A DNA stretch of 64,000 nucleotides. Source: Pseudomonadota bacterium (lineage in GTDB: Bacteria > Bdellovibrionota > FAC87 > UBA2466). Shown in pieces: positions 12,264 through 37,200 of this stretch (position 1 is the first letter of the stretch; each line of letters opens with the position of its first letter). Both the position numbers and the translations under genes were made by a program. The stretch spans positions 29,630-93,629 of the forward strand of contig JAYSWN010000172.1 in assembly GCA_043718025.1 (NCBI GenBank), in the 5' to 3' direction. Below the pieces are notes generated by a model. The model ran no database searches. It saw only the letters and a list, made by a program, of their open reading frames with translations, and had not been told where the DNA came from.

Positions 12264-13008
12264 ACGTTTGGTAATTGCGACCGCTATTTTTGCTTCGGGC
12301 CCAATACGCGCCGACGATTCGCTATCGGCCAGCGCCAACTACGTTCGGCAGAAAAATGGCCCCGATCGCGTTGAACTATCGGCGATTCGCAATTGGCAAG
12401 GGCCCGAGAACTTCCGGCTGGAGGCAAAACTGCGCTTGGGCACCAACGAAAAACAGCTGCAAACTTTTGATTGGGCCGGCGAAGCCACTTACCATCTCAT
12501 CGAGTACGTGCAACCCGCTCTGCGTTTTTACAACGTTAGCCACCTCGCTAACGGCACTCACCACACCGGAATCTATCCGGCGATAAATTTCTATCTGCCG
12601 GTTTTTTCGCAGTTTAGACTGCACGCGAACTTCGGCTGGTTTTTGCGCTGGGTTTCGCTTTCGACAGCCGTACCGCTGCCCTACTGGGGGGGCACGTCTT
12701 ACTTTGAACACGACATTGGATTTGCCCTGGGCGGAGAACTCAAGTTTCTACCGGCCTGGCGTTTTTCGGCCACGGCCACCACTTACGATGACTTTGACGT
12801 GCACAACTTCAATCACCCCATTCTCAAACTGACCGTTGCTCATGATCTGGCTGACCGCAATGAGGTAGCCCTCTTCTTTCGCAATGATTTTTTATTGGGC
12901 TTTGGCCGAACGCAGTCGTGGCGGATAGGTGCCACCTACGTCTGGAAATTTAGTAGTCCAGCCGCTTTCGCTCAAAACTTAACTGGTCGCCGTCTACCGA
13001 AACCTTGA
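12256..13008 (+). CDS. Hypothetical secreted protein, possibly an outer-membrane beta-barrel
   Basis: Signal peptide MFKRLVIATAIFASGPIRA. Alternating hydrophobic pattern and terminal ..YVWKF. GTG start overlaps the ilvA stop. Confidence 0.45.
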   Translation: MFKRLVIATAIFASGPIRADDSLSASANYVRQKNGPDRVELSAIRNWQGPENFRLEAKLRLGTNEKQLQTFDWAGEATYHLIEYVQPALRFYNVSHLANGTHHTGIYPAINFYLPVFSQFRLHANFGWFLRWVSLSTAVPLPYWGGTSYFEHDIGFALGGELKFLPAWRFSATATTYDDFDVHNFNHPILKLTVAHDLADRNEVALFFRNDFLLGFGRTQSWRIGATYVWKFSSPAAFAQNLTGRRLPKP

Positions 13009-13804
13009 CGTAAAAGTTTTCTAACACGGGCTCCATACGTCGACCGCCGCCACCACCGGCCACGAGATAGCTCACCCCATCAATATTCTTCTGCACATAG
13101 CTGTGATAGTGCGCCGCCAACCAGGCCGATACATTCCGAGTGGTCGCCAATTTCATCAGGGCCTGAGCCTCTTGTGCGTCAGAGAAACGCAGATAGCTGC
13201 GCACTCCGGCAACGATGGGGGAGTAATGGCTGAGTAGAAAAATATTTGTCTCTGGGCGCCCACCCAATTGCTGATTCAGCCATTCGGTCTGCTCGCTGCC
13301 TAAAGTGGCGTCGGCGGTATCAAGCGCAACAAACCGCGAGTTGCCTACGGTGAAGGCGTAGTGGCTCGGCCCGACTTTGGCTTTAAAGAACTCCCAACCG
13401 TCGGCAAAGATATCGTGGTTACCGAGAATCGAAAAAACCTTTCCGGCCAAGGGCGACGCAAGAATTGCCGCGTGGTAAGCATTCACCTGCTCAGCGGTGC
13501 CCTGATCGGCCAAATCGCCAAGCATGATCGCAAAGGCATCGCCGTCAGCCGCCGACAGCGCCAGCATCTTTTCGAGCCAGGTCGTGGCCCCTAGGTGCAG
13601 ATCGCCTACGGTGGAAAAGCTGAACTTGTTGGGATTGGTAAGCACAGGCGGAGTGACGACCAGCGCGAGCTTCTCGCTTTCAGCAAAACGGGTTTCGGGA
13701 AGAGTTCGGCTCACGCAACCTGGCCACAAGAGCGCGCCCAAAAGCGCTGACGAAATAATAGACACCCGAAAAAATAAAATCATGGTTACCCCTTGAAACT
13801 GCAC
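12950..13804 (-). CDS. Calcineurin-like metallophosphoesterase, secreted or lipoprotein
   Basis: GDLHLG..LGDLADQG..GNHD..HYH motifs. N-terminal signal peptide. The start may be at the internal MILFF (13783). Confidence 0.7.
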   Translation of the reverse strand: MQFQGVTMILFFRVSIISSALLGALLWPGCVSRTLPETRFAESEKLALVVTPPVLTNPNKFSFSTVGDLHLGATTWLEKMLALSAADGDAFAIMLGDLADQGTAEQVNAYHAAILASPLAGKVFSILGNHDIFADGWEFFKAKVGPSHYAFTVGNSRFVALDTADATLGSEQTEWLNQQLGGRPETNIFLLSHYSPIVAGVRSYLRFSDAQEAQALMKLATTRNVSAWLAAHYHSYVQKNIDGVSYLVAGGGGGRRMEPVLENFYVKVSVDGDQLSFERKRLDY

Positions 13805-14021
13805 CTATTTTCACTCAAAGCCCGGCGATTTCAAGCAAGTGTGTAAGAAGTAGGCAGCTTGCCCCCTAAGATTTCAACGGTTTACAAAAAGGTGTCAATA
13901 AACTGGAAATTGTTTGTCCGAGAGTTAGGCCACGAAACAGGTGGCGATTTGTTACGCACTGACAAGAATTAAAACTTAGAAAACAATGACTTACAAAGTA
14001 TCCTTGAAGTGACCAAGAAGC

Positions 14022-14039
14022 TGGCACAACCCTCGCTTA
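14022..14039 (+). promoter_or_regulatory. Candidate sigma-54 (-24/-12) promoter facing the glycan cluster
   Basis: TGGCAC-N7-GC (cTGGCACaaccctcGCtt) with the correct GG/GC spacing. No EBP site identified. Confidence 0.3.
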
Positions 14040-14236
14040 TATAGAAATCATGCGGGCCAATAAGAGAAGTGCGGCGACAAGCCCAAGCCGGCACTTCCGT
14101 CTCCAGGTAGTAGGTCTGATGAACTTCCCAGCGGCTCCCGCTGGAAAAAGTAGTCGCCTCGCCTGAAGGTTTTACCGGAACGGTGAGTGCAACCGCCCGG
14201 TCGAAACAGAAAATTGAACTCTTCGAATTCTAAGGT

Positions 14237-14275
14237 GGGGCCTTCCGCAATCCAAACGGAAGGCTCCATTTTTGG
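14237..14275 (+). terminator. Intrinsic terminator-like hairpin inside the 580 nt intergenic leader
   Basis: GGGGCCTTCCG-caatccaaa-CGGAAGGCTCC followed by aTTTTTg. Lies about 190 nt downstream of the sigma-54-like element and about 110 nt upstream of the GT gene. Confidence 0.35.
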
Positions 14276-14382
14276 GCCTCTTCAAAAACCCTTCTCCCCC
14301 TTTAAAGAAACATCGCAAAAAAAAGAATCGCTTTAACCCCCCGCGGCTTTCCTCTTTCAATCCCTACGCTATCGTTTGCAAA

Positions 14383-15597
14383 ATGAAAAAAGACGCCGTT
14401 GTTGCTTACCTAGTAGGTGAATACCGAAAAACCACCCACACTTTCATTCATCGTGAAGTGCGTGAGCTGCGCCGGCAGGGGGTTAAGCTTCATACCTTCA
14501 CCATTCGCGACCGCTGTGATTTTCCGGATCCACTGTACCTGTCCGACGAGCCCCCGACCCGCCAGGTGCTGACCTACAACCCAATCAAAATACTTGCGGC
14601 GCAATTTTTTTGGATTCAGCGTTCGCCGGCAGCCTACCTCCAAGCGATGAAGGCCGCGTGGACTCTACGCGCCCCGGGCGCAAAGTCTTTACTCTACGCT
14701 GGGTTCTATTTTTTAGAGGCGACCGTATTTGCGCGGAGCGCCCTTGAATTGGGAGTAAGTCACTTCCACAATCATTTCGGTGATTCTAGCGGCAACGTGG
14801 TTTTCATAGCTTCACGACTGGCAAAGATTCCGTTCAGCATCACCTTTCACGGCCCAGATATTTTTAACGAAGCCAAGAAATGGCATCTGGGGCTGAAGCA
14901 AAAATTTGCAAAGTTCACCGTCGGCACCAGTTCTTACGCCAAATCGCAGGTGATGCTTTTTTCCGATGAGCTCGAACAGGACAATATGCACGTGATTCGA
15001 GCCGCCATCGACCTAGCTGATTTCATTAATGAGCCTCCCCACGTTCCCACGACCAAGTGGAAGCTACTCTTCATCGCCCGCACCGCTCCGGCCAAGGGGT
15101 GGCGCGTGCTATTAGAAGCGGCAGAGAAGCTAGAGAGAGCGGGAGTGGTAGATTTTTCATTGAGCATTGTCGCGGCCGGACCGCCCCATCACCTAAAAAA
15201 GTTAAAAGAATCAATCGCACGCCGCGGCCTGTCCTCGGTGCATGTTTCAGGCGCTTGCCCGCCGGCGACCATTACCGCGCTCATCGGATCTCACGATATT
15301 TTGCTCTCCACCAGTTTTGCCGAAGGGCTACCGGTAGTATTGATCGAGGCCATGGCAATGGGAAAAGCGGTTGTCGCCACGGCCGTGGGTGGAGTTGGGG
15401 ATTTGGTTCGCCACGACGAAAATGGCATTTTAGTTCCCCCCGCCCGGCCCGATCTCGTGGCTCAGGCGATTACCGAACTTACCCAAGACCCCGAACGGTA
15501 CACGCGAATCTGCAAGGCCGCTCGCCTGGAAATTCAACTTGGCTACCAAGCCGAAAGCGAATTTGGCAGACTCAAGGCACTTTTCAATGATCACTAG
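14383..15597 (+). CDS. Glycosyltransferase family 1 (GT4-type)
   Basis: C-terminal EGLPVVLIEAMAMGKAVVAT..GGVGDLV GT1 motif. ATG 14383 (MKKDAVVAYLVGEY..). The ORF-track start at 14272 is over-extended. Confidence 0.8.
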   Translation: MKKDAVVAYLVGEYRKTTHTFIHREVRELRRQGVKLHTFTIRDRCDFPDPLYLSDEPPTRQVLTYNPIKILAAQFFWIQRSPAAYLQAMKAAWTLRAPGAKSLLYAGFYFLEATVFARSALELGVSHFHNHFGDSSGNVVFIASRLAKIPFSITFHGPDIFNEAKKWHLGLKQKFAKFTVGTSSYAKSQVMLFSDELEQDNMHVIRAAIDLADFINEPPHVPTTKWKLLFIARTAPAKGWRVLLEAAEKLERAGVVDFSLSIVAAGPPHHLKKLKESIARRGLSSVHVSGACPPATITALIGSHDILLSTSFAEGLPVVLIEAMAMGKAVVATAVGGVGDLVRHDENGILVPPARPDLVAQAITELTQDPERYTRICKAARLEIQLGYQAESEFGRLKALFNDH

Positions 15598-17260
15598 CCA
15601 ACGCCGTTACCCCTTTCTGATTTGGCTCGCTGTTTTCTCACTCGCCCCGGCACTCTTTCTCACGCTGTGGTCGCAGCGATCACGCCGCCTATTCAATTTG
15701 CGCGAACCCCAGCTCGACATGTTTCTGTTTCACGACACCAAGGCCGTCTACGTAAATGTATTTCTGATTACAGCAGGTTTTATTCTGTTCGCTTGGCCGC
15801 AGCTTTTTGGGTGGCCAGCAAAAACGTTAAATGCCAATTGGGAAAAGTATCGCGCGCCCGCGATTAAATATTTTCCCGTGTTTTTTTTCATTCTTGCGGC
15901 GGCGTTGGCTTTGCCGGTTTACCAGAATACCGCGTTGACCCTCGATGAGTACGCCGCCTTCTTTCAAGCCGAAGCGTTTAGTCACGGAAGTCTTGGCGGA
16001 AAAATGCCAATTGGCCTCATACCGTGGGCGGTCCCACGCTGGCTAGGTAGCTATTTTTTTACGGTCTCGCCCGAGGGGTTGATCACCGAGACCTATCTGC
16101 CGGGTTACGCCTTGTTGCTGGCCCCTTTTGTAAAATTGAATCTGGGTTGGCTGTTTAACCCGACCTTGGGCGCACTCATTTTGGCGACCTTAGTTTCCTT
16201 GGCGCGAAGACTCTTTGACGATGAAACCGCTTTATGGGTGGCGGTGCTGGCGATATCTTCGCCGGTTTTTTGGGTTAACTCGGTCTCTTTTTATTCTCTA
16301 AACTGCCGTCTGCTTTTCAACTTGTTGTTTCTCTATTTTCTTTGGCCCTCAACCGCAATGACCGGGCGGCGCGCGCTGCTGGCTGGTCTGGCTGGCGGCA
16401 TGGCGGCATTTACCCACAACCCCTATCCCCACGTCGTATTTGCCCTGCCGTGGCTCTTATATTTCTTTTACCGGAAAGAGAGCCGCCGTTTTATCTGGGC
16501 CCTGTGCTTAGGTTACCTACCCTTTGTTCTATTGACGTGCAGCTGGGGGCTGCTCCTGTACCGATCTCAGACGGTATCTACCGGCCCCACCGGCGGCGGC
16601 TTTACCTACGCTTGGGATATGGCCAGCGCCTTGGTACCGCCTCCGTGGAGCGAGCGGACCTTTGTGATGTGGAGCACTTCACTCTGCAAGTTGTTGCTAT
16701 GGAGCACTCCCGGTATTTGGTTTTTCTTTCTTTCAACCAAGTCGATTAAAAGTCCGTTTTTGCGCCTTAGCCTTATCTCCTTTGTGCTCACTTTTTTTGC
16801 GTACGGTTTAGCCAAAAACAGAGTGGCGCAGGGTTTTGGCTGGGGACACCGTTATAGCTACGCGGCGATGGGCGCGGTGTGGTTGGCGGCGGCTTACTGG
16901 CTAGCGCGCCGGGAACAGCGCAGTGCCTTCCGCATCCCCGCCATGGGGATGGCGCTAGGCGGACTGCTGGTGATGACGCCCCTACAACTGATCCAAACGC
17001 ATCGCTTCATTGCCAGCCAAAACAAGAAGTTGCCGTGTCTGGCCAAAGACGTTCGGCAGGTTTGTTTAGTGGTGGCAAAGAGCGACTATTATTTAGGTGA
17101 CCGTTTACAAAACGATCCGTTTTTAAAAAGGCCTCGACTCCTTTTCCACAGTGCCGGGAAAGAGAGCGACGACAAAATGATGCAGGAGTTCTTTCCCAAC
17201 TACGAGTTGAAAAAGAGGGACGACCGGCACGCGATTTGGTTGCCGAAAGAAAAACCGTAA
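15587..17260 (+). CDS. Polytopic membrane protein, GT-C fold glycosyltransferase-like (ArnT/PMT-type)
   Basis: At least 10 predicted TM segments. LTLDEYAAF DE motif in the first extracytoplasmic loop. ATGA overlap with the upstream GT. Confidence 0.5.
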   Translation: MITSQRRYPFLIWLAVFSLAPALFLTLWSQRSRRLFNLREPQLDMFLFHDTKAVYVNVFLITAGFILFAWPQLFGWPAKTLNANWEKYRAPAIKYFPVFFFILAAALALPVYQNTALTLDEYAAFFQAEAFSHGSLGGKMPIGLIPWAVPRWLGSYFFTVSPEGLITETYLPGYALLLAPFVKLNLGWLFNPTLGALILATLVSLARRLFDDETALWVAVLAISSPVFWVNSVSFYSLNCRLLFNLLFLYFLWPSTAMTGRRALLAGLAGGMAAFTHNPYPHVVFALPWLLYFFYRKESRRFIWALCLGYLPFVLLTCSWGLLLYRSQTVSTGPTGGGFTYAWDMASALVPPPWSERTFVMWSTSLCKLLLWSTPGIWFFFLSTKSIKSPFLRLSLISFVLTFFAYGLAKNRVAQGFGWGHRYSYAAMGAVWLAAAYWLARREQRSAFRIPAMGMALGGLLVMTPLQLIQTHRFIASQNKKLPCLAKDVRQVCLVVAKSDYYLGDRLQNDPFLKRPRLLFHSAGKESDDKMMQEFFPNYELKKRDDRHAIWLPKEKP

Positions 17261-17319
17261 CCGGGTGATGCAGAAAGGCTAGACCAAGAGCCTGCGCCCC
17301 CCTAAAATCAGGCCAACGA

Positions 17320-17994
17320 ATGCGCTACGAAAAAAGAATATTTGATCTCTTTTTCGCATCGGCACTGCTCTTAGCGGCTTTGCCCCTATTCTTGGTAATC
17401 GCGGCCCTGATCTACAGCACCAAGACTGGCCCCATCTTCTTTCGCCGACGGCGCTACGGCTTAAACGGCGCCACATTTGAGATTCTAAAATTTCGCACCC
17501 TATCTTCCTCAAAGGGTAAACCGGTAGCAATGGCCGACTTTCTGCGTCGCACTTGCTTAGATGAACTGCCGCAGCTTATCAATGTGCTTAAAGGTGAAAT
17601 GAGTTTGGTAGGCCCGCGTCCGCTCGACGTCGAAGAGAGTGACGCGTTAGCGCTGATCTATCCGCGCCATCACCGTCGCCACACCGTACCTCCGGGACTG
17701 ACGGGCAGCGGCCAGATTGAGGGAATGCGCGGCCTTTTGGACAGGACCCAAATCGAAAGACGGCTTCGCCTCGACATTGCCTATACCGAACGAAATTCGT
17801 TTCGCGGCGACCTTATGATTTTATGGTTAACTCCCTTTTCGATTTTGTGCGGGCCGAAAGCAGCTCCAAAACAAACGCCGCTAAAAACCCCCCATTCGCC
17901 AGGTAGCGCGGACCAAGCCGCTTTGGCTCTTGCCACATTCGATAGGCCCATTCCAAACCCAAGTTGCCTAACCAGCGCGGAGATCGGCGCTTAA
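17320..17994 (+). CDS. Bacterial sugar transferase (polyprenyl-phosphate hexose-1-phosphate transferase, WbaP/WcaJ C-terminal-domain type)
   Basis: IFDLFFASALLLAALPLF..GPIFFRRRRYG..FEILKFRTL..DELPQLINVLKGEMSLVGPRP. The C-terminal tail after DLMILWLTPFSIL is low-complexity and overlaps the convergent WecG gene. Confidence 0.8.
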   Translation: MRYEKRIFDLFFASALLLAALPLFLVIAALIYSTKTGPIFFRRRRYGLNGATFEILKFRTLSSSKGKPVAMADFLRRTCLDELPQLINVLKGEMSLVGPRPLDVEESDALALIYPRHHRRHTVPPGLTGSGQIEGMRGLLDRTQIERRLRLDIAYTERNSFRGDLMILWLTPFSILCGPKAAPKQTPLKTPHSPGSADQAALALATFDRPIPNPSCLTSAEIGA

Positions 17995-18592
17995 TTCCCG
18001 AGATGAGATCTAACGCATTTCCCACCTGAAAGATCACTCCCGCTTCAATTTTGGCCAAATGCTCATGAATCCAAAGTTCACCCTGCGGTTGCCCAAGCGC
18101 CAGAATCAAATAATTTGGTTTTGCTTTTGCGATCGCATTCAATACCCGGTTCGTTTCGCGATCGGTGATCGGTTTTCCAACGTGTTCGGTGCCCGCCACG
18201 ATGAAGTCAGGGTGTTTTTCCTTCAACCGCCGAATCGCCAGTTGGGTCGCCTCCTCCCGTCGCCCCACGAAAAAGAAGGTATGTCCTTGCAGGGCGCCAA
18301 CGCCGCACAGCTTTTCTAACAACTCAGAACCCGGGATCCGTTCCAAGAGCTTATGCTCGGCCCAGCGTGAGGCCAAAACGATTGGCATGCCGTCGGCTAC
18401 GGTAAGCGCGCTCTGCCGATTACAATCCTGGAGCCGAGGGTCGCGACCAGCAAGCTCGGCAAAGTTAAGATTGCCCGAGACAATCACCGACTTTTCCATT
18501 CTTCGCGCCAGGTTGGATGCGTGCGCCACCGCTTCGCTCATGCCCACGGTGTCGATCCAGATTCCCAGTAATTTCTGGCGATGAAACGTCAT
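17813..18592 (-). CDS. WecB/TagA/CpsF family glycosyltransferase
   Basis: LGIWIDTV..VSGNLNFA..DGMPIVLASR..KPNYLILALGQPQGELWIHEH. Start chosen at the internal ATG 18592. The ORF track extends to 18667. Confidence 0.75.
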   Translation of the reverse strand: MTFHRQKLLGIWIDTVGMSEAVAHASNLARRMEKSVIVSGNLNFAELAGRDPRLQDCNRQSALTVADGMPIVLASRWAEHKLLERIPGSELLEKLCGVGALQGHTFFFVGRREEATQLAIRRLKEKHPDFIVAGTEHVGKPITDRETNRVLNAIAKAKPNYLILALGQPQGELWIHEHLAKIEAGVIFQVGNALDLISGIKRRSPRWLGNLGLEWAYRMWQEPKRLGPRYLANGGFLAAFVLELLSARTKSKRELTIKS

Positions 18593-18687
18593 GATTCGGT
18601 AATTAAAGCGCGAACCGCACCAATGCGCAAACCGCAGGAAGTGCCGAGTCATGAGCTTTGGTTTCAATCCTGTTACCGTTTAGCGAA

Positions 18688-19881
18688 ATGCTGAACGCGG
18701 CGCTGCTCATTCTATGTTCCCTATTCCTGCTGGTGTTGCTTGCGTATCTCCTCTTGGCGCTCACTGAATTGGCCCTGAGCTTCTGGCCCAAGCCTGGTAA
18801 AGAAAATTATTCCACCGGAGTTTACGACGCCGTCCTATTTCTACCGGCCCACAACGAAGCCACCACGATTGCTGCGTCGCTCACTAGACTGCTTCGGCAA
18901 CTGCCGCCATCGTTTACGCTGGTGGTACTGGCCGACAACTGTATAGATGACACGGCCGCGGTGGCCCGAAATTTTGCCGGCGTTACCGTTTGGGAGAGGA
19001 ATTGCCAAGACCGTAAAGGAAAAGGGCATGCCTTGCGCCACGGTTTTCGCCGTTTGCGCCAAGAAGGCATTCAGGCCGAAGCGGTTCTGGTCTTCGATGT
19101 CGATACCTACGCCAGCGCCGCAACCCTGCTAGTCCTTGCCGCCGCCGCAGTGGAAACTCAGCGACCAGTTCAAGCCGCGCACCTCTATGCGGAGGCAAGC
19201 CAACGGGAGAATGCTCTTTCCACGATGGGAAGTTGGTGGAGCACGTTTGTGCGCGAACAAGGCCGTAGCCGTCTGTCACTTCCGCATTTTATGCACGGCA
19301 CGGGCATGGCGATCCCCTTTTCTCTGCTCCCCTTTTTCGACGAACTCGATGGGTCGCCCGTTGAAGACAAACGGCTCACGGCAAATTTCGTGATCTCCCA
19401 ACATCGACCTCTCTTTCTACCGAATTACCCAGTCGCATTTTATGAAAATGAGAGTGAGGGAGACTGGCGGCGGCGACGTCAGCGCTGGGAATTTGGTCAC
19501 CTGGCCGAAATAAAAACCACCACTCCCCGGATTTTACTGGCGGCCGTCGAACAGAATCGATTTTCTCTTTTTTTCTTTGCCCTGGATTTCTCATTGCCGC
19601 CGCTTTCGCTGCTGTTTGCCTTGGGTTCCGGCCTTGCCGCAATCGGTTTTCTAATCAAATTTCCCGCGCCCTTTCTGCTGCTTAGCGGGATATGGAGCGG
19701 CTCGACCGTTCTGTTTATTGTACTGGGGGGCACTCGCGTTTGGTTTTCGCCGTGGCGAGCGCAATTTGGTCGTTGCGTTCACGACTTGCCGCGCTGGTGG
19801 GTTGGTAAGGCGAAAAACTACTCTCTTTTATTGACCCGGCGTTGGCAAAAACGATCAGTGCCGGGTTTGTGGCTAAAATAG
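18688..19881 (+). CDS. Membrane-anchored glycosyltransferase family 2
   Basis: LFLPAHNEATTIAASLTRLL..LVVLADNCIDDTA (DxD-type) with C-terminal TM segments. Confidence 0.7.
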   Translation: MLNAALLILCSLFLLVLLAYLLLALTELALSFWPKPGKENYSTGVYDAVLFLPAHNEATTIAASLTRLLRQLPPSFTLVVLADNCIDDTAAVARNFAGVTVWERNCQDRKGKGHALRHGFRRLRQEGIQAEAVLVFDVDTYASAATLLVLAAAAVETQRPVQAAHLYAEASQRENALSTMGSWWSTFVREQGRSRLSLPHFMHGTGMAIPFSLLPFFDELDGSPVEDKRLTANFVISQHRPLFLPNYPVAFYENESEGDWRRRRQRWEFGHLAEIKTTTPRILLAAVEQNRFSLFFFALDFSLPPLSLLFALGSGLAAIGFLIKFPAPFLLLSGIWSGSTVLFIVLGGTRVWFSPWRAQFGRCVHDLPRWWVGKAKNYSLLLTRRWQKRSVPGLWLK

Positions 19882-19911
19882 TTTGGTCCACAGCGGTTTT
19901 CTTAACGCCGA

Positions 19912-21636
19912 ATGATTGATAGAGTGCCGAGAAGCTCAATGAATAAATCTGCGTCCCTCATTTTTATTTCGGTGCTGGTACTTCAGTCTATTCTGATCGC
20001 CCTTTTCCACTTCTATTTTCATGAACCTTGGCGCGATGAAGTGCAGCATTTTTTAATTGCTACCTCGACCAAAGGATTAGGCGGCCTATTTTCGGCGCTT
20101 CGCTACGAGGGTCACCCCCCATTTTTGCATCTGCTCTATCGCGGGCTAGATCATTTTGTTGAGCCTCGCGTGGCGTTGGCCCTGGTCTCAGGCATCGGTT
20201 ACTTCACGCTCTCCACCTCCGTTTTTGCGCTCCTGAGCACGGCTTCGACTGCGCCTTGGCTGGTGGTGTTGGCTTCATGGCTTCTCAGCCTATCTTACGT
20301 GTCGGTTTACGAATTCGGCGTGATTGCGCGCGGCTACGGCCTGGGCATGGGAATGGCAATCGCTGGACTGGTCTGTTTTATCCGCCTGCTCAAGTCGCCG
20401 GGTGACGCGAATTCGGGGGGCCGGCGATGCACTTTCGCCCTTGGTCTGGCCTTTTTCTGCGCCGCCATTTTAACTTCCGTACATTCCGCAATTTTAAGTG
20501 CCTGCTTTTTGGTGCCCTTCTTTTTGAACTGGTTCATCGAAAAAAAATGGCGCGCCCTAGTGCTCACCCTGGCAGCCCTGGCGCTACCGTTGGTGATTCT
20601 TTTTTCCCTGCTCAGGGATCACACCGACCGCATGCCTTCGCCCATGGCCGCCACGCCCCAGGATTTGGCCAGCAAACTTCTCTGGGTCGGTGAGCAAGTT
20701 CAAATGGGGCGGTACGCCGCCGAAATGATGAGTCGTCTTTACCAGCTTTTTTACGAATTCAGTTTTCCCACTCACTGGTGGAATTTTGCCTACTCCGAGG
20801 TGCCGCGTTGGTTTGGCCACAAAATGTTTTGGACGCTGCTCAGCCTCACTCTGATCAGCTTTTTTTTCCAGAAAGGAAAAGGGCGGCACCGCCTTCTCAT
20901 TGTCATCTCGTTGATTTTCGGAGCCCTGGTTTTCGATTTCTTTTTTACTTTCTTGTACCCAGCCTCCTTCCGACACCGGGTTTTTTTTACCTTTCCCGTA
21001 TTTTTACTGATCGCGCGCCATTGGCTTGAGTATTGGAGCCCGAATCTCCGCCAGGAACTGAAAGCCCAGCTCCCTCGGGTGCGACTGCGCAGCGGCACGA
21101 CGCTCTTTGCCTTCCTTCTTTTGACCGGCCTTTCCCTATCGCAAATTGCCGCCAGCGCGCTGGCCCTGGGAGCAGACTATTTTTGGTATTTTTCGCAAAC
21201 GGCAATGGCCCCCGCTTTCATTCCCAATTCGCCGAACGTAATGGTGGCGGTCGATTCTGATTTCACCGCTACGGCGATCGCGCTGTGGAACCCAAAGGTA
21301 AAACTCTATTCCCGAACGGGCGGCGGCCGCCCCTTCACTTACGCCAAATGGGATCGAGCCCGTGGCGAGAGAAAATTGAGGCGTAAAGTTCTGTTGGGCC
21401 GACTTTGCGATGAAGTAAATGAGCATCCGGAACGATCCCTTTACTACTTAAGTGTCCACCCATCGCAAGACGCTGAATACCCGTTCAAAGAAATTTTTGC
21501 CTCGTCGCCGTTGGTACCCACCGCGGTCCTGGATGAGCGCTTTCGCTTCTATTCAGTTGATTGCAAAACGCAGACACGCGAGGAACTCCAACACCATGCC
21601 GGCGGCTTTTATCAAAGGGGCACCGCCGCAAACTAA
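19912..21636 (+). CDS. Second polytopic GT-C-like membrane glycosyltransferase
   Basis: Many TM helices. WRDEVQH DE motif in the first loop. Same architecture as 15587..17260. Confidence 0.45.
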   Translation: MIDRVPRSSMNKSASLIFISVLVLQSILIALFHFYFHEPWRDEVQHFLIATSTKGLGGLFSALRYEGHPPFLHLLYRGLDHFVEPRVALALVSGIGYFTLSTSVFALLSTASTAPWLVVLASWLLSLSYVSVYEFGVIARGYGLGMGMAIAGLVCFIRLLKSPGDANSGGRRCTFALGLAFFCAAILTSVHSAILSACFLVPFFLNWFIEKKWRALVLTLAALALPLVILFSLLRDHTDRMPSPMAATPQDLASKLLWVGEQVQMGRYAAEMMSRLYQLFYEFSFPTHWWNFAYSEVPRWFGHKMFWTLLSLTLISFFFQKGKGRHRLLIVISLIFGALVFDFFFTFLYPASFRHRVFFTFPVFLLIARHWLEYWSPNLRQELKAQLPRVRLRSGTTLFAFLLLTGLSLSQIAASALALGADYFWYFSQTAMAPAFIPNSPNVMVAVDSDFTATAIALWNPKVKLYSRTGGGRPFTYAKWDRARGERKLRRKVLLGRLCDEVNEHPERSLYYLSVHPSQDAEYPFKEIFASSPLVPTAVLDERFRFYSVDCKTQTREELQHHAGGFYQRGTAAN

Positions 21637-21642
21637 ATTCGG

Positions 21643-22263
21643 TTGCCGGTCGAAACCCGGCCCCCTAGGGTGAAGCCGATGAGGAGCGCCGAACAGATTC
21701 GATTTTTAGAGGGGGAATACAGTCGGCTTTGGCAAGACTATGGACTGGACGCAATTTCAGCGCCACCTGCCGTAGACCAGGCCGTGCCTTCACCCCTTAT
21801 TGAACCCCGGCCCACTCCCGAAGGCCCCTCCCCCTTTCTGGTGTGCGTTGAAACGCCACCAGAACCGAGCGTGGGCTTTGTGGTGCAGCTTTCTTTGGAA
21901 TACCCTCGGTTAAAGAAAGACGAAGAGGCGCTGTGGGAGCGAATGCTTCAAGCCCTCTCCCTAAATCGGGATGCCGTCGCACTCATTAAAATTCTTGCCC
22001 TACCTGGCCAACCACAGACTGCCGCGACGAATCATTTCTTATGGGCGTTGCCCCCGTCGCTGCGCTGGATCATATTTTTCGGCAACCTACCTTTTCAAAC
22101 CGTGACCCATGGGGCGGGAACGCAGGGGATCTGGGCGCCGCTGCCTGACTCGGCGGCCGGTCAATGGCTGCTTACTCACGACCTGGCGAAACTAACGCGT
22201 GACCCCAATTCGAAAAAAGAGACATGGAATCATTTGAAGGATCTCCCGCAGCGTCTAAAATAG
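21643..22263 (+). CDS. Hypothetical protein
   Basis: ORF with a TTG start, or ATG at 21679. Pro-rich N-terminus. No recognisable domain. Confidence 0.4.
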   Translation: MPVETRPPRVKPMRSAEQIRFLEGEYSRLWQDYGLDAISAPPAVDQAVPSPLIEPRPTPEGPSPFLVCVETPPEPSVGFVVQLSLEYPRLKKDEEALWERMLQALSLNRDAVALIKILALPGQPQTAATNHFLWALPPSLRWIIFFGNLPFQTVTHGAGTQGIWAPLPDSAAGQWLLTHDLAKLTRDPNSKKETWNHLKDLPQRLK

Positions 22264-22273
22264 AGGCGCCGCT

Positions 22274-23560
22274 ATGAAAAAAATAATCGCCTTCAGCTTC
22301 GTCGTTTGCTCCCAACTCTTAATGGCCGGCCCGATTTCGGTGGCCCGAGTCAACTCCAGCATCAATCCTGGGACGGCCGATTACCTGATCACCGCCATCG
22401 AAAAGGCGGAGGCAAAGGGCTCGCCCTTTCTCTTGATCGAAATCGATACCCCCGGAGGGCTGCTCTCAAGCACCCGTACGATCGTGCAAAAAATTTTGAA
22501 CAGTAAAATTCCTGTGGTGGTTTACGTCACCCCAAAAGGCGGCCACGCCACTTCTGCCGGTGCCATCATTGCTCTGGCTGCGGAGGTAACGGCCATGTCG
22601 CCCGGCACCCACATCGGGGCGGCTCATCCGGTTACCGGATCGGGAGAAAAATTAGATGACTCCGTACGAACTAAAATGGTGAACGACACGGTCGCTTTTA
22701 CCGAAAGTTTGGCGCGCGCCACCGGACGCAATCCTGATTGGGCCGCAAAGATCGTAAGAGAAAGCCTGGCGATTACGGCTGAGGATGCCCTTAAAAGCGC
22801 GGCCATTGAGATCATCGCAGATAGCCGCGGCGACTTAATTTCGAAGCTCGTGCAGTGGAAATGGAAGAAAACGAATGCCGCTCAAGTTGAAATGAAAAAA
22901 GGGACGGCCGAGATTGAAATCATTGCCCCAAGCTTGAAACAAGATTTGGTCTCTTTTTTTTCCGATCCCACTCTCGCCTACTTAGTTTTGTCGTTGGCCG
23001 GGCTCTGTTTGTGGATCGAACTCACTCATCCGGGCCTAATCTTACCTGGGGTGATTGCGGTTTTCTGTGGGCTGTTAAGTCTAATTTCATTTCAGCTTCT
23101 ACCCATCAGCTACGGGGCCGTGGGGCTAATGGTGCTGGGCATGGCGATGCTTTTCGCTGAACTTTTTCTACCCACGTTCGGCTTGCTTGGGATAGCGGGG
23201 GTAGCTTGCTTTATTTTTGGTTCGCTGTTTCTGGTCGACACCCAGACGGGCGCACTCGGGGTGCCACTATCGCTAGTGCTGACCACCGCTACCTGTCTTA
23301 GCGCAGCGGCGCTGGGCTTAGGCATGCTGGTATGGAGATCCCGGGGCGTAAAAAAATTGTCGGCCGACGACGCCATGGTTGGCGAAATTGGCGAGGTGGC
23401 TGACCGGGTCGATCACCAGCACGGCATGGTATTGGTCCGCGGCGAGCTCTGGAAAGCGCGCGGCTTTGGCGGAGCCGCGTTCGAAAAAGGGGCCCTTGTG
23501 GAAGTGGTTGCCATAAAAGATTTAACCATTACGGTGCGATCTCAAACGGTGACCTCGTAA
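22274..23560 (+). CDS. NfeD-like membrane-bound serine protease (ClpP class), stomatin operon partner
   Basis: N-terminal ClpP-like region GGLLSSTRTIVQKI..GGHATSAGAIIALAA, then TM segments and a C-terminal OB-like region. Immediately upstream of the SPFH gene. Confidence 0.8.
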   Translation: MKKIIAFSFVVCSQLLMAGPISVARVNSSINPGTADYLITAIEKAEAKGSPFLLIEIDTPGGLLSSTRTIVQKILNSKIPVVVYVTPKGGHATSAGAIIALAAEVTAMSPGTHIGAAHPVTGSGEKLDDSVRTKMVNDTVAFTESLARATGRNPDWAAKIVRESLAITAEDALKSAAIEIIADSRGDLISKLVQWKWKKTNAAQVEMKKGTAEIEIIAPSLKQDLVSFFSDPTLAYLVLSLAGLCLWIELTHPGLILPGVIAVFCGLLSLISFQLLPISYGAVGLMVLGMAMLFAELFLPTFGLLGIAGVACFIFGSLFLVDTQTGALGVPLSLVLTTATCLSAAALGLGMLVWRSRGVKKLSADDAMVGEIGEVADRVDHQHGMVLVRGELWKARGFGGAAFEKGALVEVVAIKDLTITVRSQTVTS

Positions 23561-23579
23561 TTTGAAAATGGAGCCTTAA

Positions 23580-24347
23580 ATGATTGCGCCCTATTTTATT
23601 GTCGGTTTTTTCATCCTCTTCTTTTTAAGCTCAGCCCTTAAGGTTCTGCAGGAGTACGAAAAAGGGGTGGTCTTTCGACTGGGCCGCTTAATCGGCGCCA
23701 AAGGGCCGGGCCTTATTATATTGATTCCGGGAATTGACCGCATGGTGAAGGTGTCGATGCGCATCGTAACCGCCGACATTCCCCCGCAGGACGTGGTGAC
23801 CAAAGACAACGTGTCGATCAAGGTAAACGCCGTAGTCCTATTTCGCGTGGTCGATCCAATTCGCGCCATCAATAACGTAGAGAGCTATTTGGACAGTACC
23901 TATCAGTATGCGCAAACCACTCTGCGTTCCGTACTCGGTAGCGTTGAGCTCGATGACGTGCTGGCCGAAAGGGTTGAACTCAACAAACGCATTCAAGAGA
24001 TTCTCGATCTACACACCGAGCCCTGGGGCATCAAAGTATCCGGGGTTGAGATCAAGCAAGTCGATTTACCCAAAGAAATGCAACGCGCAATGGCGGGGCA
24101 GGCCGAGGCCGAGCGTCAACGGCGGGCCAAAGTGATTAATGCCGAGGGCGAAGCCCAAGCCGCAAGCAAGCTGGTGGAAGCGGCAAAGAAAATTGAAGAC
24201 TACCCGGCGGCGCTTCAGCTGCGCTATTTGCAGACGCTTCAGGAGATTGCGACGGAGAATAACTCCACGGTAATTTTCCCGCTGCCGATAGACCTATTAA
24301 AAGCTTTCATGGAAAAGATTCAAAACAAACCCACGCGTGAGGTTTAA
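23580..24347 (+). CDS. SPFH/band 7 stomatin-like protein
   Basis: N-terminal TM then [47 protein letters not shown]. Confidence 0.85.
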
Positions 24348-24350
24348 TTC

Positions 24351-24953
24351 TCAGCCGCCGAGCGTCTTTAACAACGGACCAACATCTTTCTGCATTTTCT
24401 CAACTAGCGTCGGGGGAATCAGAAACGTGCCCCCAAGAACGCGATTGCCCCCCTGTCGGACTCGCCAATGGAGTGGGTAGTACGTGCCGAAACTATTCCA
24501 ATCAATTAGCAGAGGGAAAGTGGCTGAGCCTCTTCCCAAATTACCCATAACCTCGGTCACACGAACTTCTATCGTTTCAAGTTCATGAGTGCGAGAGTTT
24601 TCAATTTCGAGGCGATAGGCCTGGGTGTCTTCCTCGTCTACCGAAAAAGGGATCGCTCCAGCCCGCTCAAAAACTGCCGCAGCGTAAGCTCCAAAAGGGA
24701 AGGAGCCAGATAAAAGGCGATCAAGGCGCTGAAAATAGGGAAGCAAAAGGTTACGCGCTTTTTTATCGGCATCCCTCTTTAACTCGCCGTCTTCATCAAA
24801 AACGGCGTCATAAAATTCGCTAACCGAAGGCAGGGCATTGAGAATTTCGAACCGCGGATCCCCATTCTGATCGTGATGATTGGCTACAGAAAGAATGAAC
24901 CGCTCGGCACTAAGAATCTGGTGTTCTTCGAACCATTTCCCCCATCGCAACAA
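24351..24953 (-). CDS. Hypothetical protein
   Basis: 200 aa ORF with a TTG start 6 nt after the stop of the upstream small membrane ORF. No domain recognised. Confidence 0.4.
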   Translation of the reverse strand: MLRWGKWFEEHQILSAERFILSVANHHDQNGDPRFEILNALPSVSEFYDAVFDEDGELKRDADKKARNLLLPYFQRLDRLLSGSFPFGAYAAAVFERAGAIPFSVDEEDTQAYRLEIENSRTHELETIEVRVTEVMGNLGRGSATFPLLIDWNSFGTYYPLHWRVRQGGNRVLGGTFLIPPTLVEKMQKDVGPLLKTLGG

Positions 24954-29861: not shown

Positions 29862-31403
29862 TTGACGCGTAACGCAAATCATTGGCTTTTGTCCGTAGCC
29901 TTTTTGGCGGTCTCCTTAATTCTTTCGTCGTGCGCAACCACGACGGTCGATAAAACCGCGGACGGGCCCCCAAACGATCCGGTGGTCTCCACCGCCGATG
30001 AACCCGAAACAGAACATTCTAGAAATTCGGCGAAAATCGAAAATCAAACGATCGATGACATTATTCGCATCGAAGAGCCCAACACCCTCACTCTGTACGA
30101 CAACTCGCGCTACGATTTTCCAATCACCGTGAACTCACGGGTCGAAGGCTGGATTGACTATTTTACCGGCCGCGGCCGCGGGCACATGGAACGCTACTTG
30201 GCCCGTTCCGCTCGCTACATCCCCCGAATGAAAGAAACCTTGAAGAGTTTGGGCATGCCGCAAGACTTAGTTTACCTGGCCCTCATCGAAAGCGGATTTA
30301 ACGTCCGCGCCAAATCTCACGCCCGAGCGGTTGGGCCCTGGCAGTTCATTAAGCCTACCGGCAAACGCTATGGCCTTCGTGTCGACGCCTGGCTCGACGA
30401 ACGGCGCGATCCGATTAAGAGCACCGTGGCGGCCGCCAAATATTTAAAAGACCTCTACCTGATGTTTGAGTCGTGGTATCTCGCCGCTTCGGCCTATAAC
30501 GCCGGTGAATACAAAGTGCTGCGCGCCATCGAAGAACAAAAAACGAATAACTACTGGCGCATTTGTGAAACCCGCTCACTTAAACGCGAAACCAAAGATT
30601 ACGTGCCAAAACTCATTGCCGCCGCGGTGATCGCCAAGAACCCCAATCGCTACGGGTTCGATGGAATCGTCTATCAGGATGCTTTAGAGTTTGAAACAGT
30701 GAGTATCGACTTTCCGCTGCACTTAAAGGAAGTGGCGAAACTTATCGACGTGCCGATGGACGACTTAGAAGAGCTGAACCCCCATCTCGTACGCAACATG
30801 ATCCCGCCCAATTCACCTAACTTCGAGCTGCGCGTGCCCACCGGCACTCGCGCGTTAGTCGAACGGGCGATTGCGCAGATGCGGCCCGCATTAGAAGAAA
30901 ATAAATTGCCCAGACAACACCTGGTCGCCAACGGGGAAACGCTAAATTCAATTGCCCGCCGATACCGCATTTCCAGCCGTGCGCTGGCTAACGCCAATAA
31001 CGTGGTGCCAAAAGAAAAACTGACCCCGGGTCTATCGCTGGTCATTCCCGGAGCCGAAGAGCGACGGGCTGAACCAGTTCGGCGCGAAAATGCGGCCAAC
31101 CGCCGCGGACGTAATAACGCCGCCCTGGTTGCCGATGAATCTGGTTTTGTTACGCACGTGGTCCGGCGAGGAGAATCGCTATGGTCCATCTCTGAAAAGT
31201 ATGACGTCACCGTTCATGACATCTTCAAGTGGAACAGTTTGCGCAAGTCACGCATCTTTCCCGGTAAGCGGCTTCGCATCAAGGGCGCGGCGGGTGGAGA
31301 GCAGTCCCTTAACGGTCACAATAGCCGCGCCACTCAAACCGGAATGAGATTTGCCAGCCTGAAAGCACCGGCCAAAAAGAAGGCTACAAAGTTCCAACCG
31401 TAA
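29862..31403 (+). CDS. Membrane-bound lytic murein transglycosylase D-like (SLT domain plus two LysM)
   Basis: SLT catalytic region LALIESGFN..GPWQF..AYNAG. Two LysM repeats near the C-terminus. Lipoprotein signal ..LILSSC. TTG 29862 follows GGAGG. The ORF-track start at 29781 is less likely. Confidence 0.8.
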   Translation: MTRNANHWLLSVAFLAVSLILSSCATTTVDKTADGPPNDPVVSTADEPETEHSRNSAKIENQTIDDIIRIEEPNTLTLYDNSRYDFPITVNSRVEGWIDYFTGRGRGHMERYLARSARYIPRMKETLKSLGMPQDLVYLALIESGFNVRAKSHARAVGPWQFIKPTGKRYGLRVDAWLDERRDPIKSTVAAAKYLKDLYLMFESWYLAASAYNAGEYKVLRAIEEQKTNNYWRICETRSLKRETKDYVPKLIAAAVIAKNPNRYGFDGIVYQDALEFETVSIDFPLHLKEVAKLIDVPMDDLEELNPHLVRNMIPPNSPNFELRVPTGTRALVERAIAQMRPALEENKLPRQHLVANGETLNSIARRYRISSRALANANNVVPKEKLTPGLSLVIPGAEERRAEPVRRENAANRRGRNNAALVADESGFVTHVVRRGESLWSISEKYDVTVHDIFKWNSLRKSRIFPGKRLRIKGAAGGEQSLNGHNSRATQTGMRFASLKAPAKKKATKFQP

Positions 31404-34212: not shown

Positions 34213-37200
34213 TCAGCAATTGCTCAACGCGAAACTCTTTAACGGACGCTGTGTCTAAAGTACTAGAATATGACAGCCGCGTCTTTCTGGTAATGTCTTT
34301 TTGAATTACGACGCTAGGTACCGTAGGATTGGCATTGTCGTTGCTGCCGGCCGCCGAAGAGATGCTGGTGGACTGGGCCTGATTTTTGGATTTAATTTTG
34401 ATATCAAAGCCCAAATTACCCTGGATTTTAGACTGCAACGGAATCTGGCCCATCACCGCCGACCCCAAATCCATAAAATTTCCTTCCGAACCACGTCCCG
34501 TAAAGCCCAAGAGGAGCAACGAAATAATTTCGGGCTCACTGAGTGCGGGTGAAGAGGTAAGGCGGATGCGGTAATCTTCGGGAATGCCGTAGGCCAAAAG
34601 GGTGACTTCATACTCCGCCGGATTTTGCCCCTTCTCTTCTTTCTTGCGGGTGGTGCCCGACAGATTAAAGCGCGGAAGAATGCGGGATTCGCTTTCAAAT
34701 TTCACAACGCCAGAATTCAGAGTGAAAGGGGTTTCGCGGAACAGCAATTTACCATCGATTAACTCGGCCTGCCCGAGCAAGCCCATCGCGGTGTCCTTAC
34801 CGACCAGGTGGAAATTCCCCTTAAACTGCGCGTTTAGCAAATCTGTTTTTACGTGGGCCGCTCCGCGGCTGTTGCAATCGACGTCCAAGGTGAAGGTGGG
34901 CGTGAGGTTGCGCGGCTGGGCAAGGGGAGCCGCGGATTCGAGCTTAAGCAAATTGGCTTCGATGAGCTGACACTTTCCTGCAATGTGGTACGGCAATCCC
35001 TTTCCGGCGAAGGTAAAATCACCGCTCACCAGAGTTTCTAAATTATTGTCCATGAAGTGGAGCATGACCCGGTCGGTATTGATCGTAAGCCGAGGAACAA
35101 ACTTAGTGAAGAGATCCATCCCGATCTCGCCGCCCGCCTTTAAAACGCCCCCATTTACATTCGCGTCAAATTTATCGAAGCGGATTGCGTTGCTACTCAG
35201 CGTTAGCTGGGCGTCGATGCCCTTGATCTCATCGGTCATCCCCTTGAAACGCAGTGCCCCTTGTTCAATGCGGGCGTTGCCCAAAAAATCTCGTCTAGCG
35301 GACGACCCCGTTGCCCGCACCCCAAACGCTAACCGCCCCGAGGCCGATTCCACGAAAGGAAGAAACGGCCGCAACGCCCCGACGTCGGAACGGCCATCGA
35401 GACGACCTTGCCATTTCCCGCCGGTACTCCAATGCCAATCACCGCTGAATTGGCTATCGCCGCCTTCAAGTAAAAAGGGAGCGATTTTGAATTCACCCGG
35501 CTCCATTGAAATTTCAATCGGCTTACGGCTTTCCAGAACGGCGTTACGAAGGCCCAATCGAAGGGTATCGAGCTTGGCGCGGCCGCGCAGCGAATTCCAC
35601 CGCTCTAAACTGCCAACCAGATCGATGCGCCCCCCTAGCCGCACTTCCTGAAACGTATCCAGATCCATACCCAGTAGGGCGGAAAGCCATGGCAAGCCAT
35701 CAAATCGCACCAGGCTCATCGAAAGTTCGCCTTCTCCTTTTTTGATGGGATGGCGGTAGGTTCCGGCAAAGCTGCCATCGTTAGCCGCAAAGGTAGAACG
35801 CACTTGCGTTTCATCGCTCTGCATATTCAAGCTCCACTCAGGAATTTCAGCCGACCGAAAAGTGAATTTTTTTGCCTGAATTTTTCCGAGAGCCTGCGTT
35901 AACTTTCCTTCCTTCAACTTAAATTCAACATCGCCCAGTAGTTCGCCCGACAATGAGGTGCCCTTGAACTTCGCAAACTCTTCCAATCGCAGCGAATGGC
36001 TTTTGAAATGGAGTTCAGTTTCACCATCATCCAGACTCCCCGAGACTTGCAGTGCGCCCGTACGTTTAAAGAGCAGGATACGCCGCAACGAAGTGTGCTT
36101 GGGCCGAAAGTTGGTCGAAAAGCTCCCCCCCTGCCAGTGCTCTCCGTACCAATCAAAGTCTTTAGCCTGTCCCGTCGCTTCAATCTCTAACCCTTCGTTG
36201 TCACGCCCCCCCTCGATAAATACACGGCCACTCAACTCACCGCCGGTTGGTTCGGGAAAGGGCAGCACGCCTTCAGGAAACACCTGAAAGACCCGCGCCA
36301 ATTCCGTTCGTTTCACGTCCGCCTGAAACTTGTAGTGAGTCTTTTCTGGTGAAAAATCGACGTACCCACGGCCAAGAATAGGCTCGTCCGACGCCAGTAC
36401 CAGATCCTCGAAAGTCAAAAGACCGCTCTCGAAGTGGGCGCGCCCTTGAATCTCTCCCAAACGAACGCCCTCAATCTCGGAATCGTTCGTTGTAAACGCT
36501 CCGTTGATCTTGCCACCCAGGGCCTTCGAAGCCGAAATCTCCGCCTCCAGTTGAGCCACCGTGCCCTTCAAATTTAAATTGGAAATGTGCTTTAGCTCAG
36601 TAAGCGAAATGTTTTTCGCTTTCACCGAAAGCTCAGCCGAACTGTTGAATCCCAAGTGCCCCTTCACATCGGCACGACCACCCAAAACGTCCACGGCAGT
36701 ATCAAATGTCATTCGATCTAAGAAAAAAGTGATCTGCCCCTGAACCTTGCCCGCTCCGGCTTCGATAATGGGCTCTTTGGGGTCGTTACTTTCAACCACT
36801 AAGCCCGTAAACGGATTCTGCACATCGACGGCAATTTGAAACGGCCCGCTGAAGGCGCCGGTTACGTTGAGCTCCCCGTCAAAGTTCATATTCACCGGGG
36901 CATCGGCCGTACGCACATCGCTCAACAAATTTTTAAGGCTAAGTCCTTTAGCCTTCATTTTCCCCTGAATCGGGTAAGGTGGGGATAGGGAAACCGCCAA
37001 ATCGCGTGAGCTCAACTCACCACCGGCCCATAAAAAGGAAAGATCCTTTAGATGAAGCCAATTTTTGGGATCGCTCTCGAATAAAAAGTCACCGCTGCCG
37101 ATGCGATAACCGTCGACGTAAACGTTTTTGTACTTCAGGGCGCCCGTGGTCGAAATGGTCTTTTCGTTAGTTTTAGCTTTTAAGTGTAGACCAACGTTAC

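Follow-up and report, generated by a model that had tools for sequence, protein, structure and literature searches.

A conserved six-gene glycan locus of a Bdellovibrionota genome with two predicted GT-C_A-fold membrane glycosyltransferases of uncurated families

We analysed a 64,000-nt stretch of a Bdellovibrionota genome (contig JAYSWN010000172.1), here called the window, and in it a six-gene glycan locus at 14383-21636 that encodes two multi-pass membrane proteins, designated memA and memB. Both proteins are predicted with high confidence, by two methods, to have the GT-C_A glycosyltransferase fold, and both belong to sizeable families that lie outside Pfam, NCBIfam and the Protein Data Bank (PDB). 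Their genes are interleaved, in the same order in four genomes, with genes for a retaining glycosyltransferase of family GT4, a PglC-like initiating sugar-phosphate transferase, a WecG/TagA/CpsF-family (GT26) glycosyltransferase and a membrane-embedded GT2. The locus is a variant of the GT-C-dependent glycan pathways already known, built around two uncurated enzyme families. That it makes a cell-envelope glycoconjugate by a lipid-linked pathway, with memA and memB as two periplasmic GT-C_A transferases, is the reading we prefer, and we hold it with evenly balanced confidence.

Results

Fold and class of the two membrane proteins

A sequence-only reading of the window had described two membrane glycosyltransferases of an ArnT/PMT-like GT-C type within a glycan-assembly cluster. 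In terms of sequence, the likeness to ArnT and PMT could not be recovered. Neither memA nor memB scored above threshold with any Pfam or NCBIfam model or matched a PDB sequence, and profiles of the two families matched no Pfam, NCBIfam or PDB profile even at E values up to 1-10. PMT, PMT_2, STT3 and the other Pfam GT-C models were absent from 26 memA relatives and from 31 distant memB relatives, the ArnT/PMT profiles being applied at E up to 1 to the 26 memA and 8 close memB relatives, and at E up to 0.01 to the 31 distant ones. The WWDxG motif of STT3, PglB and AglB (GT66) was also missing, since the translations contain no WWD; WWN, the nearest string, sits in a loop in the middle of memB. 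The two families appear unrelated to each other (profile-profile probability 0.3%), and BLASTP between the two proteins was also null.

In terms of predicted fold, the GT-C description held for both proteins. AlphaFold models built from the family alignments were good for memA (pLDDT 86.8, pTM 0.91) and acceptable for memB (pLDDT 73.6, pTM 0.76), and the polytopic fold of the predicted structures could be superimposed on ArnT, PMT, STT3 and ALG-type enzymes. Structure comparison of memB returned ALG12 (16.5), Pmt4 (16.3), AglB (16.0), Pmt2 (15.7) and ArnT (14.5), and an independent ranking by Foldseek placed STT3, ArnT, Pmt4, AglB and PglB at the top, with no O-antigen ligase, SEDS or Wzy-like structure in it. 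The earlier reading had set GT-C against the Wzy/WaaL families, a contrast that is now outdated, since O-antigen ligases and SEDS proteins have been placed in GT-C_B and Wzy-type polymerases in GT-C clans (PMC10920833). Because these ligases and polymerases now count as GT-C too, the correct label for memA and memB is GT-C_A type rather than GT-C_B.

The DE motifs singled out earlier are present and conserved in both proteins, as D120/E121 in memA and D33/E34 in memB. Both pairs come directly after a transmembrane helix. The catalytic base of GT-C enzymes characteristically belongs to an acidic pair placed where the loop behind such a helix begins, and the two pairs may be equivalent to it. 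D120 does not vary among 26 memA homologues, and E121 is kept in at least 90% of them. Conservation in that family peaks in the block QGFGWGHRY, in which Q415, G416, G418, W419, G420, R422 and Y423 are invariant (QGxGWGxRY). In 31 distant homologues of memB, H28, E29, W31 and E34 of the HEPWRDEVQ motif are invariant, and D33, Q36 and the E57-G58-H59-P60 block are at least 90% conserved.

Organization of the locus

The interval is filled by six long open reading frames (ORFs), as had been proposed, and the plus-strand genes are tightly coupled: the GT4 stop codon overlaps the ATG start of memA by 11 nt, and gaps of 59 nt and 30 nt separate memA from the transferase gene and the GT2 gene from memB (Table 1). 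The description of the cluster as colinear had to be given up, because the GT26 gene lies on the minus strand, which means that the locus comprises at least three transcription units. This gene is divergent from the GT2 gene and overlaps the transferase gene tail to tail by 182 nt (17813-17994), a convergent overlap that implies antisense transcription over both 3' ends. The longest GT4 frame begins at TTG 14272, a start that is disfavoured since it would run into an upstream hairpin; memB counted from ATG 19939 has the same length as database entry P0026.

Table 1. Positions of the genes, motifs and candidate regulatory element of the locus in the window
Feature	Position	Strand	Remarks
GT4 retaining glycosyltransferase	14383..15597	+	404 aa from ATG 14383
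memA, first predicted GT-C_A-fold membrane glycosyltransferase	15587..17260	+	557 aa; alternative TTG start 15539
PglC-like small monotopic polyprenyl-phosphate sugar-1-phosphate transferase (predicted initiating enzyme)	17320..17994	+	224 aa
WecG/TagA/CpsF-family (GT26) glycosyltransferase	17813..18667	-	likely starts ATG 18652 or 18592
Membrane-embedded GT2	18658..19881	+	407 aa
memB, second predicted GT-C_A-fold membrane glycosyltransferase	19912..21636	+	574 aa; 565 aa from ATG 19939
memA D120-E121 codons (TLDEY), candidate catalytic acidic pair	15944..15949	+	start of loop after third hydrophobic helix
memA motif QGFGWGHRY	16829..16855	+	residues 415-423; most conserved block of the family
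memB motif HEPWRDEVQ	20020..20046	+	residues 28-36; immediately after first transmembrane helix
memB motif EGHP	20107-20118	+	about 20 residues past HEPWRDEVQ
Candidate regulatory element of the first operon	14022..14275	+	sigma-54-type box and conserved structured RNA

The four remaining assignments of the earlier reading (GT4, sugar-phosphate transferase, WecG/TagA and membrane GT2) all scored above curated cut-offs. The GT4 protein matched PF00534 with 108.9 bits (cut-off 26.4; E = 2.6e-31) and PF13692 (1e-28), and its homologues have 400 aa in L003 and 403 aa in L165, two contigs of the syntenic genomes described below. The transferase matched PF02397 with 165.4 bits (cut-off 27; 1.3e-48), its nearest solved structure is PglC (8g1n, 2.8e-23), and its translation contains LDELPQL, with the DE catalytic dyad motif of the Bac_transf/PglC-like class; accordingly, the initiating enzyme is assigned by its sequence to these monotopic transferases. 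The product of 17813-18667 is likewise placed in GT26 (WecG/TagA/CpsF) by its matches to PF03808 (164.3 bits, cut-off 27.4; 2.9e-48) and TIGR00696 (121.6 bits, cut-off 69), and its nearest solved structure is TagA/TarA (7mpk, 5.3e-26).

The GT2 protein matched PF00535 (47.5 bits, 2.4e-12) and PF13641 (44.1 bits, 3.2e-11), and a hydropathy scan showed a single hydrophobic helix at the N terminus and, at the C terminus, a hydrophobic stretch with several helices. Its relatives, which bear PF13632, are named cellulose synthase/PNAG synthase-like or diacylglycerol glucosyltransferase, and the protein had no match to GT2_TM_C, the mark of the GtrB/DPM1/ArnC-type architecture; it is therefore predicted to be of the COG1215/PF13632 type and not of the GtrB/DPM1 type. 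A kinship with the GtrB-type partners found beside distant memA relatives was considered and rejected, BLASTP against the GT2 of one such locus (L001) giving E = 0.11. The nearest relative outside the clade lies in an ordinary heteropolysaccharide locus with GT4 genes, a Wzy_C gene, a GT22 fragment and WecG, a setting which suggests that the window GT2 is a membrane-anchored repeat-unit transferase.

Conservation of the gene order

The order GT4, memA, transferase, GT26 (antisense), GT2, memB recurs in three genomes besides that of the window. One is represented by L005/L003, where the locus is interrupted by a contig end, another by L006, a Bdellovibrionota metagenome-assembled genome (MAG), and the third by the contigs L165 and L004, which come from a single organism and are 100% identical in the 2,953 nt that they share. 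Protein identities between the window and these genomes are about 36-52%, and an order kept at such divergence argues that the arrangement is no chance juxtaposition. The antisense GT26 gene overlaps the 3' end of the transferase gene in L003, L004 and L006 as well (53-180 nt). The flanks are also conserved: the upstream one consists of a threonine-dehydratase-like, a hypothetical and a Metallophos gene, the downstream one of a hypothetical gene, NfeD and Band7.

Candidate regulatory RNA upstream of the first operon

Conservation over the four genomes is unusually high in the 578-nt spacer that precedes the GT4 gene. It contains a sigma-54-type -24/-12 box (TGGCAC-N5-TCGC, 14022-14037) and an RNA core of about 170 nt (14103-14270) with three helical elements, which closes with a GC-rich hairpin and a T-run; three of the four copies have the T-run behind this final hairpin. 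Counterparts lie at about 8230-8500 in L005, about 2480-2760 in L006 and 1-200 in L165. RNAalifold predicted 44 pairs, 12 of them with compensatory changes, and conserved G-U pairs favour the plus strand. A search of Rfam with this RNA gave no family match; c-di-GMP-II was rejected as its identity (18 bits against a gathering score of 53.5). In a scan of 13700-24600, consensus promoters and terminators were found no better than in shuffled sequence. The RNA may serve the first operon as a leader or riboswitch-like element, or it may act as a small RNA in its own right, and it is a candidate new regulatory RNA class, a matter separate from the glycan question.

Size and genomic context of the memA and memB families

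A word-based search returned 25 memA and 8 memB relatives. A scan for the memA family with a pattern based on QGFGWGHRY, taking one genome per species, found 481 loci, the closest of which are labelled as Bdellovibrionota and 'Deltaproteobacteria' MAGs; the best 80 come mostly from proteobacterial MAGs, with a few cultured strains (Burkholderia stagnalis, Luteimonas, Silvimonas). A profile search with memB returned 6,331 related sequence clusters, and for 2,483 of these the E value was 1e-30 or lower. The two families are thus sizeable, uncurated GT-C families, the Pfam GT-C check having covered sampled members (26 memA relatives; 8 and 31 memB relatives).

Among the 125 ORFs nearest to memA relatives at 70 loci, GT2 genes were commonest (25), followed by PilS-like kinases (10) and then methyltransferases, GT4 (7) and GtrA (3). 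A GT2 matching that of L001 lay within 420 bp at 24 of the 80 best loci. In L001 itself the GT-C gene follows a GT2 with a GT2_TM_C domain, and a GtrA gene is close, which is the classical three-component arrangement (PMC11127046). The same memA relative lies 4-9 kb from pilD, pilC, pilB and pilin genes (region 15883-20619 of L001). Eleven Steroidobacteraceae-like loci (L011, L013, L015, L020, L024, L032, L042, L052, L054, L067 and L077) carry, next to the memA relative on its upstream side, a minus-strand ORF of about 630 aa, and these ORFs are presumably the 10 counted PilS-like histidine kinases. It is possible that the memA relatives near such kinases or pil genes, mostly from one lineage, are linked to pilin glycosylation.

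The 40 neighbourhoods of distant memB relatives (128 ORFs) contained GT2 (5), PMT_2 (4), LPG_synthase_TM (4) and Bac_transf (2) genes, that is, weak and diverse glycan associations with no clear partner. In L166 (7463-10275) a memB relative with 32% identity overlaps by 4 nt the preceding gene, for a 418-aa protein without a Pfam match, and a divergent GT4 gene adjoins. This 418-aa protein and a 509-aa Pfam-less protein of L167 were tried as kin of the window proteins and rejected, neither being related; the 418-aa protein is not related to the window GT2.

Export and donor genes in the window

The window was screened through its 47 ORFs of at least 180 aa, of which 41 were scanned against Pfam and all 47 for hydrophobic segments. 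No Wzx, Wzy, Wzz or ABC exporter was found among them, in agreement with the earlier reading, and neither was a chain-length regulator, an outer-membrane polysaccharide exporter, GtrA or a GtrB-type gene. A TamA-like Omp85/POTRA protein (942 aa) adjoining a TamB-like protein (1315 aa) is encoded at 31384-38038 on the minus strand, which indicates that the host is diderm.

Discussion

Our preferred scheme, whose order of steps, donors, topology and acceptor we infer, builds on the gene content, family and fold assignments, conserved motifs, synteny and window absences described above. The PglC-like transferase would load a sugar-1-phosphate onto undecaprenyl phosphate at the cytoplasmic face, the WecG/TagA-type GT26 enzyme would add a second sugar, and the GT4 and membrane-anchored GT2 enzymes would extend the product to a short undecaprenyl-diphosphate oligosaccharide. 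A flippase encoded away from the locus would bring this oligosaccharide to the periplasmic face, where the mutually unrelated memA and memB would work on lipid-linked donors. Most likely one of them polymerises the glycan or attaches it to the final acceptor, and the other may add a residue or branch, so that together they would fill the place held in classical loci by Wzy and WaaL, or by an oligosaccharyltransferase. The lactococcal pellicle polysaccharide, in which a GT-C polymerase and a GT-C ligase act on lipid-linked repeat units, offers a precedent (PMC10821137). The product may be a decorated lipid A or lipopolysaccharide core, a glycolipid or a protein O-glycan, as the earlier reading had suggested in place of a capsule.

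Several observations weigh against this scheme. No flippase gene was identified in the window, no synthase of a lipid-monophosphate sugar donor was recognisable there, and no acceptor was identified. Synteny extends over the housekeeping flanks as well, which makes gene order alone weak evidence of functional coupling at such a distance, and 78 of the 80 best memA-family loci lack the transferase, WecG and memB. The commonest neighbour of memA relatives is instead a GT2, in at least one case a GtrB-like one with GtrA close by. That the DE loops face the periplasm is itself a presumption. In addition, four of the five tabulated GT-C_A families take lipid-monophosphate monosaccharide donors (PMC10920833, Table 1).

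This usual donor preference and the context of the distant relatives make a mosaic locus the main rival, one we place on the unlikely side. Here memA and memB would be Gtr- or ArnT-like decorators that take one sugar at a time from undecaprenyl-monophosphate donors and attach it to a glycan or lipid of other origin, for instance O-antigen, lipopolysaccharide (LPS) core or lipid A, and the transferase, GT26 and GT4 would build an unrelated product. The frequent GT2 genes beside memA relatives, the accompanying GtrA and methyltransferase genes, the grouping of GtrA, a GT2_TM_C-domain GT2 and a GT-C gene in L001 and the recurrence of L001-type GT2 genes at nearly a third of the best loci all fit such a role. 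Bdellovibrio lipid A bears two mannoses, and in Francisella FlmK and the FlmF enzymes glycosylate lipid A. A Francisella study gives a precedent for this kind of modification (PMC2233673). The window itself fits decoration poorly, as it has neither a GtrB/DPM1-type GT2 nor GtrA, hence no donor synthase or flippase of that kind, and its GT2 is of the COG1215 type. Moreover, all four genomes have memA, which overlaps the stop codon of the GT4 gene, ahead of the transferase gene, an interleaving that weakens the decorator reading, and no cultured Bdellovibrio homologue was among the matches listed.

A different use of the same diphosphate-linked oligosaccharide, its transfer en bloc by one of the GT-C enzymes to periplasmic or surface proteins in the manner of PglB, AglB or TfpW, a GT-C pilin glycosylase (bioRxiv 10.1101/2020.04.19.049825), seems to us improbable. 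The closest match of the initiating enzyme is PglC, from N-glycosylation in Campylobacter, oligosaccharyltransferases are among the structural matches, and both the PilS-like kinases (10 of the 125 neighbours, in one proteobacterial lineage) and the pil genes near the L001 relative fit this idea; against it stand the missing STT3 Pfam match and the fact that no pilin or other candidate acceptor gene was recognisable among the scanned window genes. The PilS adjacency, being mostly confined to one family (Steroidobacteraceae), comes close to a single observation. Kinship of memA and memB with O-antigen polymerases or ligases (Wzy/WaaL, GT-C_B), which would turn the locus into a classical Wzy-type one, is scarcely credible and we reject it. 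Membership of the Wzy/WaaL families had been named as the finding that would overturn the GT-C assignment, and the sole signal of it was a match of memB residues 179-246 to Wzy_C (PF04932, E = 2.1e-4), whose 21.5 bits fall short of the 31.7-bit cut-off. Of the memB relatives, 1 of the 8 close ones and 1 of the 31 distant ones show this match, which has no counterpart in memA, and we treat it as noise from hydrophobic sequence.

Compared with known systems, memA and memB show no detectable sequence relationship to ArnT (GT83), PMT (GT39), STT3/PglB/AglB (GT66), ALG9/ALG12 (GT22) or AftA/AftB, and memA differs from these GT-C_A enzymes in having two extra N-terminal helices ahead of the DE loop and its own QGxGWGxRY motif. 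The GtrA/GtrB/Gtr*, CsbB/GtcA/YfhO and GT136 systems (PMC11127046, PMC8035078) resemble the proposed pathway in using an extracytoplasmic GT-C enzyme on a lipid-linked donor, and their three-component context is the one seen at distant memA relatives such as that of L001. The window, in contrast, has no GtrB/DPM1-type synthase, GtrA, or MATE or SMR flippase, and its GT-C genes are interleaved with an initiating transferase of the diphosphate pathway, GT26 and GT4. In the lactococcal Wps system (PMC10821137) cytoplasmic transferases also build a lipid-linked repeat unit, on which a GT-C polymerase and a second GT-C enzyme, a ligase, act; however, the Wps organism is a monoderm, synthesis begins there on undecaprenyl monophosphate through a GacI/GacJ-type pair, and the system codes for a Wzx-type flippase, whereas the window has a sugar-phosphate transferase as initiator, no flippase and outer-membrane machinery (TamA/TamB-like).

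The cytoplasmic enzymes also recall the exopolysaccharide (EPS) enzymes of Myxococcus xanthus. EpsE, EpsA and EpsU are the best NCBIfam models of the GT4, GT26 and GT2 proteins, matching over nearly their full length, and EpsZ is a weaker match of the transferase, with scores that all fall far short of the equivalog cut-offs (175.7 against 400 bits for EpsE, 125 against 500 for EpsA, 105.4 against 700 for EpsU and 102.1 against 800 for EpsZ). The Myxococcus pathway is Wzx/Wzy-dependent and employs polysaccharide co-polymerase (PCP) and outer-membrane polysaccharide export (OPX) proteins. The window differs in having no Wzx/Wzy, PCP or OPX.

Extracytoplasmic GT-C steps shape the bacterial surface through lipid A modification, O-antigen seroconversion, protein glycosylation and arabinan synthesis, and new GT-C families, for example GT136, are still founded on single characterised members. 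Two sizeable families outside Pfam, NCBIfam and the PDB now have a predicted fold and candidate catalytic residues, and their occurrence in a compact, conserved locus with defined cytoplasmic partners makes them tractable for heterologous reconstitution, which could tell whether a diderm can use GT-C_A enzymes in place of Wzy and WaaL. The boldest version of our preferred reading, that two GT-C_A enzymes of undescribed families replace both Wzy and a WaaL-type ligase or oligosaccharyltransferase in this Bdellovibrionota-like lineage, under the control of a new sigma-54-dependent structured leader RNA, is a long shot. If true, a diderm would have a way to turn an undecaprenyl-diphosphate repeat unit into a surface glycoconjugate without Wzy or WaaL, and both families, with at least 481 loci at the species level and 6,331 or more sequence clusters, would found new glycosyltransferase families.

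Neighbouring genes and other features of the window

Divergent from the locus, a minus-strand gene at 12950-13804 encodes a calcineurin-like phosphoesterase with an N-terminal hydrophobic segment, which keeps the same position in L003 and L006 and possibly has a role in the pathway. On the other side (21643-24347), a gene for a 206-aa protein without a Pfam match begins 6 nt after memB and is followed at spacings of 10 nt and 19 nt by NfeD and Band7/SPFH genes; L004 keeps this whole four-gene run, counted from memB, and L006 keeps it up to NfeD. The other window genes have housekeeping or envelope functions and include GroEL, Hsp20, glutamine synthetase III, DnaB, an SLT-LysM transglycosylase, EF-P, ComEC, Obg and QueC, in addition to the TamA/TamB-like pair. 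Outside the locus the polytopic proteins are NfeD, ComEC and an unannotated, Pfam-less protein of 286 aa (54932-55792, plus strand), which lies about 33 kb from the locus and is the only unexplained multi-pass membrane protein of the window.

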